From: Gammaproteobacteria bacterium
GTDB taxonomy: Bacteria; Pseudomonadota; Gammaproteobacteria; Steroidobacterales; Foliamicaceae
Reading direction: 5' to 3'
Length of the DNA: 64,000 nt
NCBI GenBank assembly: GCA_009838035.1
Contig: VXSK01000023.1
Span: forward strand, 74,581-138,580
A program made the translations under genes and the position numbers. Each line of letters opens with the position of its first letter. Position 1 is the first letter of the stretch. The notes under the pieces were generated by a model that saw nothing but the letters and a program-made list of their open reading frames with translations, did not search any database and had not been told where the DNA came from. This document shows, in pieces, positions 7,417-52,978 of this stretch.

Positions 7417-10400
7417 GGCGCACCCGGGCCGGAATCCGCCGCCGGCTCGCCGGGGGCGAGGTCCGGGCTGTCCGAGTCGCCCGCCTGCCGCGGCAGCGCT
7501 TCCTCCTGCGCCTGACTCAGCAGCGCATCCCAATCCACTTCAGGCATATCGGTCAAATGCTCCTCCAGATAGCGGGCGCAATCGTCAAACGCGCCCAGGT
7601 CAATTTCTTCACGCAGCACCCGCTCCACCAGCGGCTCGTCCCAGCTGCCGCCGACCCGGTAATAGTTGGCCGAGATCGCCTGCAGGGGTTCGCGGAAGGC
7701 CTGCGAGAGCAACAGCATCGTTGCGCCCAGGCCGGTCCCGCCGACTATAACGCCGCCCAGCGAAAGTAAATCCGGCAGATTGGGGGATACTACGGCAACC
7801 TGGTCGTAACTGCGATCCTCGAGTCCGATCCGCCCAAACAGCGCGAGTTCGGCCACCGCTCCGTGCAGGCCCATATTGCAGGTGTAAGCCTGACCCTCGC
7901 GAAGGCTGAAATCGCCCGCCAGCCGGTCGAAGGGCAGTCCCTCCTCCGTCACTTCGCGGAAATCCAGCGCCAGGCGCCGCGGCAGGCGCGCCAGGCTGAG
8001 CACGCCCAGCATCCGCCCGCCGCCGGGGTCCAGGGCCGCCACTTCGCCCAACTCCGCCTCCAGGCGGACCGTTCCGTTGGACCGTCCGAGAAAGCCCCTC
8101 GAAGGCGGCCCGTCCCAGCTCGCGGAAAGGGTCATCCGGCCCCGGTCGCCGGAGATGCCGGGCGCGTAGCCCAACTGTTCCAGGGCCGCGGCGACGTCGG
8201 TACTCTCAAGGACCATGTCGAGCCGCCCCAGTTGCTCCGCACCTTCATCGTCCGTGACCAGCCAGGCCGCGCTTCCCTCGGACGAGAAGGCCGCCGACTC
8301 GGTTCGAAACCAGTTCACGGCCAGTCCGCCCGCTGTCTTCTCGTAACGGGCCCGCACGTCCCCCAGTCGCATCGGTCCGATCACAAGATCGCTCAACATG
8401 ACCTTGCCGGCCGGCAGGGCGCGCGGGTTCGCCGGTGGTTGCGGCTCCGGGTCCCGTAGCGTCAGCTTCAGCCGGTTCAGGTCCGCCAGCAACTGCCCGT
8501 TCCCGGCCCCCGCGCGCGGCCAGAACAGGCGCCCGTCGGCGAAATCGCCCTGAAGCTCCACCAGCCATCCGTCCGAGCGGGGACGCACGCGGAGCGACTG
8601 GTCCCTGAGGGTGTTGCCCATCGTATAGACCTCGCCCGCGGTCAGGTCCAGCGCCCATGGCAGGTCAAGCGAATCGGCTTCGTCCGCCAGTACCTCGGCC
8701 CATTTAGCGGGACGCAGCCGTTTGACGCGCCCGTCCACGACAAGTCCCGGACTTTCCGGCAGGCGCGGCAGGGAATCGCCGAAGTGCAGGCGCCCGCGCC
8801 TGATCCGCCATCCGTCGCCATCGTCGTCGAACTCCAGGGCGACGCCCGGCCCCAGTCCCAGCCTGCCCGTCAGGCGCGGCAGGTCCCCGGACCCCCACAG
8901 CAGTTCCAGCCGCGTGGGCCCGGCCTCATCCGCCGGCTTGTTCATTGGGTACGGAAAGGCACTGCCCAGTCCGACCAGGTCGGTCTCCAGGCGCACCCGC
9001 ACGGGACGCGCCGGACCCGCTTCCATCGCGGGCACCAGTACGCTGCCGTCCCACGCGAACTGTCCGTCGAGCCGGTCCAGCGCACAGCAGCCAAACAGTT
9101 CCTCCAGCGTTTCCGCGGTCGCCGAACCGTCCAGGTCCAGCCGATACCCGTAGCCGGCCATTCCGGCGGGGGCCCTGTTCACGTCGATCAGCAGCGGCTG
9201 ATCGAGAAACCGTCCCTGCAACTCGCGCACGCGCACTCCGGCGCGGGTAAAGCGAATGCTGCCCCTCAGGTTGGTGACCGCGGGTATCAGGTCGTTCAGC
9301 TTCATTTCTCCGCCGCCGAGTTCGGTCTCGGTGAAAATTTCCCAGGCGCTCCTGTCCGCGATGGGCAGCCTGAACTCCACGCGGGTTCCGGCCGCGCCTG
9401 AGGTCTCGGCATTGAGCAGCATGGGATGAATTCGATCGGCCATCGGAATGCGCGCCAGACCGTCGATCAGCGCCGGCAAGGGATCGTCGCTTTCGCCATT
9501 CACCTCCACGACCGGACTGGCCAGGTCGCGGACATCGGTGCGCACGTCGCGCCAGCGCACGCCCGCCAGCTCGCCCGCCGAGTCGAGAATGACCAGGGCG
9601 GATCCGTTCAGCACCAGCTTGCCCGACAGGTCCGTTACGTCGGGCCACGCCTCGTGCACCGTCAGCACACCGTCGGCAATGGCCATCTCCACCCGCAGGA
9701 CCGCGCCGCCGAACGGAAATGAATCGAGCGGTCCGCCGAGCTGCATGTTCCAGCCGTCGGCCCGGCCGGCATGAAGGGCCCGGCCCAGCCAACCGAACGG
9801 TAGTCCGCGCGTGTTTTGCCAGGGCAGAAGCGCGAGCGCGGCCGGCAGGTCCTCGATGCGATCGCCGCCGCCGCTCAGGTCGAGCACCGGAGAGCTGCCG
9901 CCTTCGGGCAGGGACAGGGAGAAACGGCCGGCGAAGTCCATCCCGTCGGCGCCGATTCTGAGATTGTTGCCTTCGATCGACCAGTTGTCCGGCCCGGTCC
10001 GCCAGCTCAATTCCGCCTGCGCCCCGGTGAGACTTACCGGCCCGTCCAGCCAGGACGCGGCGAAATCGCCGGCGCCGGGGATCGAGAGATCGGCATTGCC
10101 GGCGCCGGATTCGTGCCGCAGGCTGCCGTCAATTCCCGCCAGCGTCAGGCCCCGCTCCGGCCACTGAAGCGACAACCCGGAAAACCCGGCGCGGATTTCC
10201 GGCGGAAACGATCCTCCGGACTCCCAGCTCAGGCTCAGATCGCTGACGTCGCCGGCAACCGGCAGCAGCGCCGGAGACACTCCCAGCTCACGCGCAATTC
10301 CGAGCAGTGGCGGAATCGCGTCTTCAAGACGCACAAAGCCGGCCTCCAGTTGCAGTGCGGCGAGTTCTCCGCCGGGGCCCAGCGTCCAGCTTGCGCTGAT

Positions 10401-14376: not shown

Positions 14377-14843
14377 AATCGGGTGGGGTTTTCCTGCCCG
14401 GCGTAAACCTGCTCCGGATCGAACACCTTGTCGCTCTCGGTGAATTCCAGCTCGACCGGCCCGCCGCCAGAAGTCAGCGGCACCCGGCGATAGAAGCAGG
14501 ACCGGTAACCCACGTGGCAGCTCGCGCCGCCGGTCAGTTCCACCCGCAGCCATACGCAGTCCTGATCGTCGTCGATCAGCAGTTCGCGCACCCGCTGCTT
14601 CAGACCGCTGGTTTCCCCCTTGCGCCAGAGCTTGTTGCGGCTGCGGCTGAAGTAGTGCGCCTCGCCCGTGGCGATGGTCAGCTCGAGCGCCTCGCGGTTC
14701 ATGTAGGCGTGCATCAGCAATTCCCCGCTGCCGTGGTCCGTGACCACGGCCGGGATCAGACCGTTGGCGTCGAATTTCGGCGCCAGCTCGGCGCTTTCTT
14801 CCACCTGGACCACGGTCCGCCGGGGCGCAAACAGTTCGCTCAT
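14373..14843 (-). CDS. hisI: phosphoribosyl-AMP cyclohydrolase (monofunctional)
   Basis: 156-aa ORF with the HisI core (LIPAVVTD...[17 protein letters not shown]...DCVWLRVE...CHVGYRSCF). Confidence 0.85.
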
Positions 14844-14850
14844 GGCTCAA

Positions 14851-16233
14851 TCATAGCGCCGTCCGGCGCCAGGTCGTGCCTTGCGGACCGTCTTCCAGGA
14901 TCACGCCGCGTCCGGCGAGCTCATCGCGGATGCGATCGGCCGCGGCATAGTCGCCGGCCGCACGCTCCCCGGCCCGCTCGGCGATACGCGTTTCTATTTC
15001 CTCGGCGGTGAGTTCCGGTTCGCTCTCCACGGCCGTAAACCACTCCGCGGGATCGGTCTGAAGAATGCCCAAAAGAAAGCCGCCGGCCTTGAGCGCAGCC
15101 GCCCCCACGACCGGTTCCACGGCCCCGGCCCGCAGCTTGCGCGCCTCCGCGGCCAGCACGCTCAGCGCCGCCGGCGTGTTGAGGTCGTCCTCGAGCGCCT
15201 GAACGAATTCCGCCGACGGCTCCGCTGCGCGTGAATGCCCTTCCTCCCGGGTTTCAGTGGCGCAGTCGAGCAGAACGCGATACAGGCGGTCCAGACGCTG
15301 CCGGGACGCCGCAACCAGCTCGTCGCTCCACTCCAGCGGGTCCCGGTAACGCGCGCTCAGAAGCGCCAGCCGCAGAACCTCGCCCGGGACTTTCCCGCGC
15401 AGTTCGCGGATTGTCAGGATGTTTCCCCGGGACTTGGCCATCTTCGACTTGCCCATGCGGATCATGCCGTTGTGCATCCAGTAGCGGGCCAGCGGGGCGC
15501 CGTGCGCACAGCGGCTCTGCGCGATTTCGTTCTCATGGTGCGGAAAGATCAGGTCCCGGCCCCCTCCGTGAATGTCGATCGTTTCTCCCAGGTGTTCGCG
15601 GGCCATGGCCGAGCACTCGAGGTGCCAGCCGGGGCGCCCGCGTCCCCACGGACTTTCCCAGCCGGGCAGTTCTTCTGAAGACGGCTTCCACAGCACGAAG
15701 TCGGCCGGATCCTCCTTGTACGGCGCAACCTCCACGCGGGCGCCGGCAATCTGCTCGTCACGATTGCGCCCGGAAAGCTCGCCGTAAGCGGCATACGCGC
15801 CCACCCGGAACAGCACGTGGCCCTCCGCCTCGTAGGCATGCCCCGACTTCAGCAGGCTCTTGACCAGGCCGATCATTTGCGGCACGTGTTCCGTCGCGAG
15901 AGGTTGCCGGTCCGGCGCAAGCACGCCCAGCCCGGCTATGTCTTCCCGCCAGGTCCGGATCCAACGCTGCGCGACCCTCGCGATCGGCACGCCCTTCTCG
16001 GCGGCCGCCTGGTTGATCTTGTCGTCCACGTCCGTGATATTGCTGGCGTAAACGAGGTTGTAGCGGCGGCGCAAAAGGCGCGCCAGCACGTCGAACACCA
16101 CGGCCGGGCGGGCGTTGCCGATGTGGGCGGGACCATAGACCGTCGGTCCGCACACGTACATGGTCACGCGGTCCCCGTCGCCGGGAACAAAGGGCTGGCG
16201 CTCGCCGCCCAGGGTGTTGTAGAGGCTGATCAT
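14851..16233 (-). CDS. cysS: cysteine--tRNA ligase
   Basis: 460-aa ORF with the HIGH-type motif (PAHIGNARP) and the KMSKS-type motif (KMAKSRGN). Confidence 0.95.
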   Translation of the reverse strand: MISLYNTLGGERQPFVPGDGDRVTMYVCGPTVYGPAHIGNARPAVVFDVLARLLRRRYNLVYASNITDVDDKINQAAAEKGVPIARVAQRWIRTWREDIAGLGVLAPDRQPLATEHVPQMIGLVKSLLKSGHAYEAEGHVLFRVGAYAAYGELSGRNRDEQIAGARVEVAPYKEDPADFVLWKPSSEELPGWESPWGRGRPGWHLECSAMAREHLGETIDIHGGGRDLIFPHHENEIAQSRCAHGAPLARYWMHNGMIRMGKSKMAKSRGNILTIRELRGKVPGEVLRLALLSARYRDPLEWSDELVAASRQRLDRLYRVLLDCATETREEGHSRAAEPSAEFVQALEDDLNTPAALSVLAAEARKLRAGAVEPVVGAAALKAGGFLLGILQTDPAEWFTAVESEPELTAEEIETRIAERAGERAAGDYAAADRIRDELAGRGVILEDGPQGTTWRRTAL

Positions 16234-19360: not shown

Positions 19361-19406
19361 GGCCGTGAATTGTACGGGCCGCCGACAGGCATCTTCGCTG
19401 GTGCGC

Positions 19407-19505
19407 GGAGCTTTCAGCCGCCCCTACGTTCGGGAGACGCCATCCCTGGCTCGGAATCGCTATCCTGCTTTTACGCTCCCAAACGTAGGGGCGGCTGAAA
19501 GCTCC
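19407..19505. repeat. hairpin repeat copy A: 24-bp perfect arms + 51-nt conserved core
   Basis: Arms GGAGCTTTCAGCCGCCCCTACGTT (19407..19430) and AACGTAGGGGCGGCTGAAAGCTCC (19482..19505) are exact reverse complements. The core is CGGGAGACGCCATCCCTGGCTCGGAATCGCTATCCTGCTTTTACGCTCCCA. Confidence 0.8.
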
Positions 19506-19544
19506 TAAAGGCGCAGCGCCAGCCCGTCCACCGCGCCGGCCAAA

Positions 19545-19644
19545 GCCCGTCGTTCGCCCCACTCCTCGTGGGAGCGTTGGAGCAGGATAGCGAGAATCGA
19601 GCCAGGGATGGCGTCTCCAACGAGGAGTGGGGCGAACGACGGGC
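19545..19644. repeat. hairpin repeat copy B: 25-bp perfect arms + 50-nt core (core inverted relative to copy A)
   Basis: Arms GCCCGTCGTTCGCCCCACTCCTCGT (19545..19569) and ACGAGGAGTGGGGCGAACGACGGGC (19620..19644) are exact reverse complements. The reverse-complemented core is TGGAGACGCCATCCCTGGCTCGATTCTCGCTATCCTGCTCCAACGCTCCC. Confidence 0.8.
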
Positions 19645-19669
19645 GAGGAAGCAGGAACGCGCAGACGGT

Positions 19670-30616: not shown

Positions 30617-30689
30617 TGGGCCTGGCAGGATTCGAACCTGCGACCAAGTGGTTATGAGCCACCTGCTCTTACCACTGAGCTACAGGCCC
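30617..30689 (-). tRNA. tRNA with CAT anticodon (Met, or Ile2 if lysidine-modified)
   Basis: Minus-strand sequence is GGGCCTGTAGCTCAGTGGTAAGAGCAGGTGGCTCATAACCACTTGGTCGCAGGTTCGAATCCTGCCAGGCCCA. It folds as a full cloverleaf. The D-arm and variable region resemble E. coli ileX more than metT (by memory). CCA is not encoded. Confidence 0.9.
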
Positions 30690-37031: not shown

Positions 37032-37060
37032 ATGCGATATGGTAGCTGCGCTTCGGTCCC

Positions 37061-37158
37061 GCCCTGCTGGCGCCCCCTTCTTCCTGGAGACGCCATCCTG
37101 GCTCGATTCTCGCTGTCCTTGCTCCAACGCTCCTGGAAGAAGGGGGCGCCAGCAGGGC
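37061..37158. repeat. hairpin repeat copy C: 24-bp perfect arms + 50-nt conserved core
   Basis: Arms GCCCTGCTGGCGCCCCCTTCTTCC (37061..37084) and GGAAGAAGGGGGCGCCAGCAGGGC (37135..37158) are exact reverse complements. The core is TGGAGACGCCATCCTGGCTCGATTCTCGCTGTCCTTGCTCCAACGCTCCT. Confidence 0.8.
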
Positions 37159-37227
37159 TACGGCAGTGCCAACCCTGGCCGTGGCACTTATCATGGAAAT
37201 CCTTCAGCGTGATGCCGGGGAGGACAC

Positions 37228-51917: not shown

Positions 51918-52856
51918 ATGTCGATTGACGTTCTCGTAAGCGAAGTGGGGCCGCGCGACGGTCTACAGAGCCTCAATGTGATCATGCCCACCGAGGCCAA
52001 GAAGGCCTGGATCCGGGCCGAAGCCGCCGCGGGCGTGCCCGAAATCGAAGTGGGCTCCTTCGTGCCTCCGAAACTGCTGCCGCAGATGTCCGACTGCGAG
52101 GAACTGGTACGTTACGCCGTGACCATCCCCGGGCTGCACGTCACCACGCTGGCGCCGAACCTCAAGGGCGTGGAGCGGGCGGTCGCCGCCGGCACGCACA
52201 AGGTGAGCATTCCGGTTTCGGCCAGCGAGACGCACAGCAAGGCGAACGTGCGCAAGAATCACCCCGAAATGCTCGAGGAGGTTCGTCGCATCAACGAGAT
52301 GCTGGACGAACTTCCCGAGGAACGCCGCCCGATTTTCGAGGCCGGAATCGCCACTGCTTTCGGCTGCACGATGGAAGGGCCGGTGCCCGAAAGCAAGGTC
52401 CTCGAACTGGCCCATGCACTGGTCGAGGCGGGCTGCCGGGAAGTGGGTTTGTCGGATACGACCGGCTACGCGAACCCCGCACAGATCCGGCGGCTGGTGC
52501 GCAGGGTGAAGTCCGAGATCGGCGAAGAGAAACTCACCGGCGTGCACCTGCACAACACGCGCGGCTTGGGCCTGGCCAACGCCATGGCGGCGCTGGAAGA
52601 AGGCATCACGACGCTCGACAGCTCGCTGGGCGGCATCGGCGGCTGCCCGTTCGCCCCCGGCGCCAGCGGCAACATCGTCACCGAAGACTTGGTGTTCATG
52701 CTCGAATCGATGGGCCTCAATACCGGCATCGACCTCGACCGCCTCCTGAAGGTCCGCGACGTGGTCAACGAAGCGCTGCCCAGCACCGAGATGTACGGCT
52801 TCACCCCCGAAGCCGGCTTGCCCCTGGGCTTCCACCCCGGCTGGGGCACCGCCTAG
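51918..52856 (+). CDS. hydroxymethylglutaryl-CoA lyase
   Basis: 312-aa ORF with EVGPRDGLQ and the HxH metal-site context (GVHLHNTRG) typical of HMGL-like enzymes. Confidence 0.85.
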   Translation: MSIDVLVSEVGPRDGLQSLNVIMPTEAKKAWIRAEAAAGVPEIEVGSFVPPKLLPQMSDCEELVRYAVTIPGLHVTTLAPNLKGVERAVAAGTHKVSIPVSASETHSKANVRKNHPEMLEEVRRINEMLDELPEERRPIFEAGIATAFGCTMEGPVPESKVLELAHALVEAGCREVGLSDTTGYANPAQIRRLVRRVKSEIGEEKLTGVHLHNTRGLGLANAMAALEEGITTLDSSLGGIGGCPFAPGASGNIVTEDLVFMLESMGLNTGIDLDRLLKVRDVVNEALPSTEMYGFTPEAGLPLGFHPGWGTA

Positions 52857-52978
52857 CCCTCCGTTCTTTCCGCTCCCCCTCCTCTTCGGAGACGCATGAA
52901 CCCATCCATGGGGCTCGGCGGCGGCTATCCTGCCGCCGACGCTCCGCAGAGGAGGGGGAGCGGAAAGAACGGAGGGCT
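52855..52978. repeat. hairpin repeat copy D: 31-bp perfect arms + 62-nt expanded core
   Basis: Arms AGCCCTCCGTTCTTTCCGCTCCCCCTCCTCT (52855..52885) and AGAGGAGGGGGAGCGGAAAGAACGGAGGGCT (52948..52978) are exact reverse complements. The core TCGGAGACGCATGAACCCATCCATGGGGCTCGGCGGCGGCTATCCTGCCGCCGACGCTCCGC is the family core with short insertions. Confidence 0.75.

Follow-up and report, generated by a model that had tools for sequence, protein, structure and literature searches.

Four hairpin elements and their gene contexts

The window analyzed here, a stretch of 64,000 nucleotides (nt) from a gammaproteobacterial genome (assembly GCA_009838035.1, contig VXSK01000023.1, positions 74,581 to 138,580), carries four palindromic elements, A to D, in each of which a short core is enclosed by long complementary arms. 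They represent an undescribed, lineage-specific hairpin repeat of an uncultured gammaproteobacterial clade, the arms of which change as pairs whereas the tip is strongly conserved. Rereading of the window sequence finds them where an initial annotation had placed them and agrees that all four are intergenic. A and B lie between the tandem genes for an acyl-CoA dehydrogenase-like protein and LeuS, and C lies between divergent genes coding for a TauD-like protein (start 37031, − strand) and a thiamine pyrophosphate (TPP) enzyme (start 37228, + strand). D lies between convergent genes, beginning within the stop codon of an HMG-CoA-lyase-like gene and ending 16 nt before the stop of an oxidoreductase gene. 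These are the four longest and best inverted repeats in the window (arms of at least 18 nt, within 150 nt of each other); the remaining six matches are only 74 to 88% complementary, five of them being noise-like and one pairing the A core with the B core. Likewise, a covariance model built from 16 copies and run on the window with filters off scored only A to D, at 53 to 110 bits, the next match reaching 15 bits.

Elements A and B are separated by 39 nt and have inverted cores whose 3' ends face each other, as had been noticed at the outset. Element A (19407 to 19505; 52.8 bits) has its core sense on the + strand, antisense to leuS transcription. Its 24-nt 5' arm (19407 to 19430) pairs perfectly with the 3' arm (19482 to 19505), and both are followed, toward the core, by a C19431·A19481 mismatch and a G19432-C19480 pair. 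The 47-nt core (19433 to 19479) consists of GGAGACG, the hairpin CCA-TCCC-TGG, CTCGGAATCGCTATCCTGCTTTTA, and CGCTCC and is identical over all 47 nt to the core at the related locus L074 (49 of 49 positions by blastn when flanking bases are included). Element B (19545 to 19644; 63.6 bits) has its core sense on the − strand, codirectional with the acyl-CoA dehydrogenase and leuS genes, with a 48-nt core (19571 to 19618), perfectly paired 25-nt arms (19545 to 19569 and 19620 to 19644), and a mismatched junction at 19570/19619. It is preceded on that strand by a conserved unpaired 5' flank (19645 to 19654; CTGCTTCCTC), the motif of which recurs at the related loci L122B, L061b, and L120a.

Element C (37061 to 37158, + strand; 65.7 bits) has arms at 37061 to 37084 and 37135 to 37158, a T·T junction at 37085/37134, and a core at 37086 to 37133. 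Both of its flanks are conserved: the unpaired 5' flank (37048 to 37060; GCGCTTCGGTCCC) matches that of L074 at 12 of 13 nt, and the 3' flank (37159 to 37168; TACGGCAGTG) is of a TACGG type also seen at L074 and L087b. Element D (52855 to 52978, + strand; 109.8 bits) has the longest arms (31 bp; 52855 to 52885 and 52948 to 52978), followed by a T52886·C52947 mismatch and a C52887-G52946 pair. Its 58-nt core (52888 to 52945) forms a predicted three-way junction in which the inner helix GGAG.CG/CGCTCC is joined to hairpin 1 (52901 to 52912; CCCA-TCCA-TGGG) and hairpin 2 (52915 to 52939; UCGGCGGCGG-CUAUC-CUGCCGCCGA).

The anatomy first proposed for these elements stands in its essentials: the outer arms pair perfectly over 24, 25, 24, and 31 bp in A, B, C, and D, respectively, and all four possess the inner helix GGAG(A)CG/CGCTCC. 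Between these two helices, however, each element has a 1-by-1 mismatch, namely, C·A in A, T·C in B, T·T in C, and T·C in D. The proposal of a single shared core holds for A, B, and C, which have a short A-type core (GGAGACG, CCA-TCC(C)-TGG, CTCG..GCT(A/G)TCC..TGC...., and ACGCTCC). B and C represent a subtype thereof, and their cores differ by two substitutions and two single-base length differences, close to the roughly four differences originally counted. D departs from this pattern in having a longer D-type core (GGAGACGCATGAACCCATCCATGGGGCTCGGCGGCGGCTATCCTGCCGCCGACGCTCC), which includes an additional CATGAAC and forms a genuine second hairpin (GGCGGCGG/CTGCCGCC); it is the D-type core that is predicted to fold into a three-way junction with two small hairpins. 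The predicted folds of A to D are 8 to 14 standard deviations more stable than those of shuffled sequences (z scores of −8 to −14) on both strands and with both RNA and DNA parameters, and the D core adopts the same predicted fold as RNA and as DNA on either strand. A 21-nt motif from the 5' part of the core occurs twice in the window, against 0.02 occurrences expected by chance.

A conserved tip on a copy-specific stem

From the loci sampled in related genomes we collected 17 further copies, bringing the family to 21 in 12 genomes or metagenome-assembled genomes (MAGs). The elements are noncoding, intergenic, and 98 to 142 bp long, and 10 of the 21 occur in pairs 34 to 131 nt apart, with the 3' ends of the cores facing each other in four of the five pairs. 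Of the 595 stem positions tabulated in 20 copies, 583 are Watson-Crick pairs, 12 are mismatches, and none is a G·T pair. Nine of the mismatches, pyrimidine·pyrimidine or C·A, fall at one fixed junction just outside GGAG/CTCC. The remaining three are stray A·C or C·A mispairs, all of which read A·C on the core-sense strand. Inclusive of the inner helix, the stem is 27 to 30 bp long in 17 of the 20 copies.

Despite this near-perfect pairing, the arms are largely specific to each copy. In an alignment of 18 sequences, all 19 arm columns vary on both sides; 92% of the arm-column cells are paired, compared with 42 to 53% when the partner is slid by one to three columns, and none of 500 shuffles reaches the observed value. 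Between copies, the arms are 41 to 42% identical, against 35% expected from base composition, and this excess arises because the inner CCCCCTCCT/AGGAGGGGG and the outer GCCC/GGGC are partly conserved. Accordingly, the earlier description of the arms as sharing only a loose resemblance is apt in that they have diverged but would be wrong if taken to mean that they are wholly free. The tip, in contrast, is 81 to 97% identical between copies. In particular, the D-type cores of eight copies from seven genomes have a mean identity of 97.4%, although silent sites of those genomes are saturated, indicating that the tip is under constraint.

The variation that does occur in the tip preserves its helices. 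In the inner helix, GGAG/CTCC is replaced by GGGG/CCCC; hairpin 1 is found as CCCA/TGGG, GTCA/TGAC, and CACA/TGTG; and in hairpin 2, GGCGGC/GCCGCC gives way to CTGGGG/CCCCAG. The loops of both small hairpins keep (A/G)TCC, and the unpaired nucleotides of the core are nearly invariant across copies. Outside the palindrome, the 5' flank (..GCTTCCTC or ..CCCTC(C)) and the 3' flank (TT(T/C/G).., TACGG.., or TCTAGATTGCG) are likewise conserved and unpaired, so the unit extends about 20 nt beyond the palindrome.

Some individual copies show further elaborations. One at L087 (4582 to 4716) has a 25-bp perfect stem and an extra hairpin of about 30 nt (TGCTTGC..GCAAGCA) before hairpin 1, with a diverged 3' half, and the interval between two paired elements at L034 (4009 to 4139) holds about three tandem units of ~37 nt that repeat the outer arm of L034a (..GCATATGCAGGAGGCGGGCAGGCGCAGCCCAT..). 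We also considered the arms as possible guides or spacers and rejected this notion, as only chance 14-mers match elsewhere in ~406 kb of related loci.

The compensated variants in all three helices of the three-way junction, together with the near invariance of its unpaired nucleotides, are features that would be expected were the element to act as a transcript. The long stem might then be a processing or stabilizing helix, e.g., a substrate of RNase III or a protector of mRNA 3' ends like repetitive extragenic palindromic (REP) sequences, and the three-way junction an RNA domain that binds a protein or ligand and might be set free as a ~60-nt small RNA. The placement of the copies is partly suggestive of this: many lie 11 to 25 nt past a stop codon or overlap one, and in paired elements the copy that a transcript encounters first is the sense one, whichever side it comes from. 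Copies sense to the upstream gene at first numbered seven of eight, but once convergent-gene sites and same-locus duplicates are removed, the count is four of five independent, unambiguous cases, which is not significant. Nevertheless, several lines of evidence make a role as RNA rather unlikely. An RNA helix under selection would tolerate G·U, which is absent from all 595 stem positions, and the stray mismatches are uniformly A·C on the core-sense strand. The two strands are equally capable of folding; in every pair, a transcript arriving from either side would read one of the copies in antisense; and copies also occur between divergent genes (C and L121) and in every other kind of intergenic context.

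The regulatory signals that might accompany such a transcript are also missing. The A/B and D regions that we scanned have neither a U-tract terminator nor a promoter consensus; the element hairpins were not reported as terminators there, the only site in the D region being a 5-bp stem at 52843 to 52860, and the 3' flanks of the elements begin with only one to three T residues in place of the U tract of an intrinsic terminator. No Rfam family matches at or above its gathering threshold. The only hits are to generic microRNA-hairpin models, fall equally on both strands, and, at 43.9 to 50.9 bits, stay well short of threshold (77 for the best model). A self-cleaving ribozyme or riboswitch was rejected, as Rfam yielded no match even when E values as high as 10 were allowed and the strands of the junction deviate from the hammerhead consensus.

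Arms change as pairs at a nearly neutral rate

Copies at the same locus in different genomes allow the evolution of the arms to be observed directly. Window B and its counterpart L122B, from genomes whose leuS genes are 84% identical at fourfold-degenerate sites, have arms with 5 differences in 26 positions: four changes are mirrored in the opposite arm, and one is an unmirrored A·C. L078 and L103 (55% identity at fourfold sites) show eight arm differences in 24 positions, every one of them mirrored; the core is identical at 57 of 58 positions. A further comparison, between L126 and L136 (fourfold sites 70% identical), shows mirrored substitutions and a mirrored 1-bp indel (GGCTT-TT..AA-AAGCC versus GGCTTATT..AATAAGCC); L136 has, in addition, a disrupted core and two unmirrored changes adjoining it. 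The first two comparisons together give 13 arm changes, of which 12 are mirrored; transversion pairs, for which no G·U (wobble) intermediate exists, make up 7 of the 12. This directly bears out the earlier suggestion that the arms are diverged homologs in which essentially every change is mirrored.

We estimated what independent mutation predicts for B and L122B by taking the probability that a site differs (0.16) from the fourfold sites and the probability that a double change restores the pair as 1/3. The expectation is about 0.2 mirrored and 7 one-sided changes, whereas four and one, respectively, are observed. Independent point mutation is unable to yield the mirrored changes. In these two same-locus pairs, the arms change as pairs at roughly the neutral, fourfold per-site rate, and it follows that one arm must be copied from the other. 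Of the explanations put forward in the initial annotation, regeneration of one arm from the other is hence the one that we favor, given the absence of G·T pairs, the mirrored transversions and indel, and the near-neutral rate.

On balance, we lean toward viewing the family as a lineage-specific mobile hairpin element similar to REP sequences and REPINs, with a conserved tip and freely drifting arms that are kept complementary by templated copying from arm to arm. In each unit, a stem of ~28 bp is capped by a conserved T-shaped tip and bordered on the 5' and 3' sides by short unpaired motifs; the tip is made up of the inner helix GGAG/CTCC and the two small hairpins with (A/G)TCC in their loops. 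The tip and, to a lesser degree, the base are the constrained parts and are presumably bound by a protein, such as a transposase that recognizes single-stranded hairpins or a host factor. The middle of the stem, in contrast, is free of sequence constraint and, in the two same-locus pairs, drifts at about the neutral rate; any change in one arm would soon be erased or copied to the other. A likely route is intramolecular template switching during replication, i.e., quasipalindrome correction, the predicted pattern of which is seen here; old copies would then share the tip yet bear unrelated, perfectly matching arms.

Arm regeneration of this kind requires no new machinery. The correction of imperfect inverted repeats by template switching is documented by reporter genes in Escherichia coli and by sequence comparisons among proteobacteria (PMC7202029, PMC5941160), and a part in hairpin maintenance has been suggested for it (PMC8794818). 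A possible footprint of copying is seen in window D, the palindrome of which includes AGCCCTCCG, a sequence that in L126 and L136 belongs to the unpaired 5' flank; its CGGAGGGCT counterpart at the 3' end of D may therefore have been newly made. We place the maintenance of the arms at the DNA level, whereas the tip may be read as either DNA or RNA. The unrelatedness of arms within the family calls for no hypermutation if, as can be reasoned from four copies per 64 kb, a genome has several hundred copies with slow turnover. The common ancestors of such copies would be far older than the time in which neutral sites saturate.

Strict Watson-Crick pairing, a near-constant stem length, and a T-shaped fold that is predicted to form with DNA energy parameters on both strands and resembles the terminal hairpins of parvoviruses could also be accounted for by a functional site at the DNA level, in which a cruciform or hairpin on both strands serves, e.g., in binding, nicking, or recombination and is kept perfect by selection instead of biased copying. 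We consider this highly improbable. Mirrored changes at close to the neutral rate, transversion pairs and an indel among them, would still need a copying step even with selection on point mutations; moreover, no associated gene was found, and the copies are dispensable, with relatives having empty sites.

Gain, replacement, and reassortment of elements

The empty sites are clearest upstream of leuS, where L124, L134, and L135 have no palindrome in the spacer that separates leuS from the acyl-CoA dehydrogenase-like gene; this spacer measures 55 to 57 nt in the first two and 117 nt in the third. Among the sampled relatives, elements occur at this locus only in the window and in L122, its 92%-identical relative, indicating that A and B are insertions in the sublineage of these two. 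The C site is similarly empty in L132, which has an 89-nt spacer and no palindrome. At the A position, L122 has a different element, with 29-bp arms and no GGAG helix, situated between nonpairing remnants that resemble the arms of window A. At the D locus, the L126 and L136 elements have related arms (85% identical) and an A-type 3' half, and window D differs in both its arms and its D-type core from L136, its closest sampled relative at the locus (80% identical at fourfold sites); hence, the element was replaced in place. We also entertained the idea that window D and the L126 arms descend from one ancestral copy and rejected it: their position fits, but L126 is not the best sequence match, and L136 shows replacement of the element in the window lineage. 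These cases show that the element is gained, lost, and replaced as a whole, with the arms coming and going together with the core. A side observation at the leuS locus concerns L125, where, in this relative only, an open reading frame (ORF) of 495 residues with no Pfam family (8057 to 9544) lies between the acyl-CoA dehydrogenase-like gene and leuS.

An alternative is that only the core is mobile, as a cassette of 47 to 58 nt that moves between the single-stranded tips of palindromes by peel-and-paste transposition of the IS200/IS605 or REP-associated tyrosine transposase (RAYT) type, the arms belonging to the locus. What speaks for it is that core types differ at the same locus or under similar arms (window B versus L122B and L087a versus L126) and under the same flank type. 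Further, the two tip hairpins are reminiscent of those that Y1 transposases bind at left and right ends and of the "clover" fold proposed for REPINs (PMC3116915), and an IS110-family insertion at L131, described below, indicates that hairpin tips are used as targets in this clade. However, a survey of perfect inverted repeats (arms of 16 bp or more) in 341 kb of related DNA showed the core in all of those from window-like genomes, so that no long palindrome without a core was encountered there, and the empty sites at three loci lack any palindrome. These observations also reject the version in the initial annotation, in which a core inserts into preexisting palindromes. The difference between the B and L122B cores is about neutral in amount and falls in blocks equal to the core of the adjacent inverted copy A, suggesting local conversion as a sufficient explanation, and no direct repeat or target motif is visible at the junction of core and arm. 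Mobility of the core by itself is thus quite improbable.

Several findings nevertheless weigh against the arm-copying mobile element that we favor. Core type, arm sequence, and flank type reassort among copies, which calls for conversion between copies or for movement of the core alone; for instance, L087a and L126, the one pair with similar arms at different loci, share 19 of 20 inner arm nucleotides but have D-type and A-type cores, respectively. The same-locus evidence consists of two robust pairs and one more. In no genome do two copies have the same arms, and transposition in which the arms travel along is therefore deduced and not observed. Apart from the IS110-family insertion sequence of L131, neither the window nor the gene tables of the related loci offer a transposase or partner protein; in particular, the window ORFs and the genes tabulated for ~250 kb of related loci include none of the PF01797 (Y1/RAYT) type, whole genomes not having been scanned. 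Other bacterial hairpin repeats are imperfect under the same replication machinery, and template switching by itself may thus be only part of the explanation. Finally, the stem length hardly varies (27 to 30 bp in all but three stems) and the junction mismatch recurs, both suggestive of selection acting on the helix beyond passive correction.

A more radical reading is that of a new kind of mobile element, recognized only by its T-shaped tip, which moves through a fold-back (hairpin-primed) intermediate with one arm resynthesized from the other at each move. We regard it as a long shot; the arm would sometimes be extended into the flank, and the 3' end of the window D arm and the swapping of cores between stems may be its footprints. 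Were it true, the stem would be free cargo, and the perfection of the arms would stem from the chemistry of transposition and not only from replication slippage.

Phyletic distribution and sister-lineage hairpins

The LeuS, HMG-CoA-lyase, and TauD homologs place the window in a tight clade; about 15 LeuS relatives that are at least 80% identical to the window protein form this clade, the next matches being 65% identical. One of its members is named Candidatus Foliamicus, of the order Candidatus Foliamicales, and the isolate names suggest sponge microbiomes as the habitat. The carriers of copies outside the window are MAGs, all labeled Gammaproteobacteria. A first, loose pattern scan of genomes gave ~110 chance matches and, among the matches listed, at least eight real loci with nine copies. 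A tighter pattern retrieved one matching contig from JGI metagenomes and none among viral contigs; plasmids and phages gave zero matches. Several related genomes lack the element across 20 kb of collinear DNA. A literature search with the core sequence returned only vectors with the cytomegalovirus promoter, and literature on Foliamicus and on REP sequences of sponge symbionts yielded nothing useful.

A sister lineage (L128 to L131) has common intergenic small hairpins whose apex, CA-GGA-TG/CA-TCC-TG, is shared with hairpin 2 of some cores. They are absent from the window lineage, including the window itself outside the elements. They differ from the elements in being simple 8-bp hairpins, often in 60-nt tandem arrays, with neither a long outer stem nor a GGAG/CTCC helix. 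In L129 (14526 to 14860) and L130 (14526 to 14850), the tandem unit of ~60 nt comprises two such hairpins (GAGGGCTTCCAGCCCTC and GGAGGGCAGGATGCCCTCC); these two contigs come from the same sample, and the length and internal arrangement of the array differ between them. The array, uninterrupted in both, is broken in L131 by an IS110/IS1111-family insertion sequence (14571 to 15975; PF01548 and PF02371; subterminal repeats GGTCCGCCCC/GGGGCGGACC) located exactly in the tip of a small hairpin, CAGGAT^GCCC. We rejected the possibility that the core is a remnant of this element, as the two share only the 9-nt target motif.

Other features of the window

A TACAAT motif at 19369 to 19374 (− strand), within GCCCGTACAATT, lies 8 nt upstream of the leuS ATG (19360), leaving no room for a ribosome-binding site. 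It is conserved before leuS in L122, L124, L125, and L135 and appears as TTACAAT in L134. This arrangement, judged from the sequence, suggests that the leuS mRNA is leaderless, and its position implies that A and B are upstream of the likely leuS promoter. The window additionally contains a TPP riboswitch aptamer (1 to 99, − strand; 57.5 bits, above the gathering score) that is cut by the window start, with its gene outside, and a tRNA gene with the anticodon CAU (30617 to 30689, − strand; 77.5 bits).

Comparison with known systems

Several families of small palindromic repeats invite comparison. Miniature inverted-repeat transposable elements (MITEs), such as Correia/NEMIS and ERIC, resemble the elements in being small, noncoding, intergenic repeats capable of folding as hairpins. 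They have, however, conserved terminal inverted repeats and target site duplications. Here, as had been proposed, the conservation is reversed, with arms only 41% identical between copies, and no target site duplication is evident, the flanks being asymmetric (5' ...CCCTC versus 3' TT.., TACGG.., or TCTAGATTGCG) and free of direct repeats. The initial annotation was also right in setting the family apart from CRISPRs and attC sites. The copies are scattered, with pairs inverted and not direct; attC sites have R''/R' core sites (RYYYAAC/GTTRRRY) at the ends of imperfect palindromes beside gene cassettes, whereas the ends here are GCCC/GGGC, the stems are perfect, and the neighbors are housekeeping genes in conserved order. 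Minimal elements of the IS200/IS605 type (PATE-like) are marked by two subterminal hairpins and a fixed short target motif on the 5' side, with neither terminal inverted repeats nor duplications. The family described here has two small hairpins and a recurrent 5' ...CCTC motif; these hairpins, however, are enclosed by a long stem, and neither a TnpA gene nor defined cleavage sites are known for it.

Parvoviruses have T-shaped terminal hairpins, such as the inverted terminal repeats (ITRs) of adeno-associated virus (AAV), in which a three-way junction likewise places two small hairpins on top of a long stem and one arm of the stem is regenerated from the other during replication. The analogy is one of structure only: AAV ITRs are viral genome ends bound by Rep, whereas the elements have no sequence similarity to them and no Rep-like gene is associated.

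Closer in process is template-switch correction, which predicts perfect arms, mirrored changes that arise in one step and include transversions and indels, and conservation of the palindrome over that of its sequence (PMC5941160, PMC8794818, PMC7202029). It is a mutational process shown mostly for short arms or reporters, whereas here it would have acted on arms of 24 to 42 bp with a spacer of 50 to 60 nt and across a whole family. The elements at present show no new biological mechanism; their value is as a clean natural repeat family in which stems evolve as pairs at a roughly neutral rate without wobble intermediates. The long-debated role of template switching in keeping hairpins becomes measurable as the ratio of mirrored to one-sided changes in same-locus copies.

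REP sequences and REPINs (REP doublets that form hairpins), which RAYT transposases mobilize, offer the most extensive likeness. REPINs are ~100-nt intergenic hairpins with compensatory changes, for which a "clover" fold of two small hairpins has been proposed as the recognized form (PMC3116915). The elements described here are similarly intergenic, noncoding, multicopy hairpins of ~100 nt that occur singly, in pairs, or in clusters, accumulate compensatory changes, and persist for long in their lineage. They conform to the general description of REP-type sequences as short, intergenic, palindromic, multicopy repeats, with four copies, all intergenic, in the 64 kb of the window (a local density and not a measured whole-genome count). 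The layout of REPINs is nonetheless different: two end REP sequences are conserved around a variable middle, whereas here the tip is best conserved (81 to 97% identity) and the stem is mostly copy specific (41%), only GCCC/GGGC and the inner C run being partly conserved. The elements also lack the GTAG-type head, and their two small hairpins are in direct, not inverted, order. The strong conservation of the 58-nt tip points to a binding partner, be it a transposase or some host factor, which would be worth identifying. The family adds an undescribed repeat architecture, a conserved three-way-junction tip on a free stem, and its closest kin are the REP/REPIN-type miniature mobile elements, with their usual pattern of conservation inverted.

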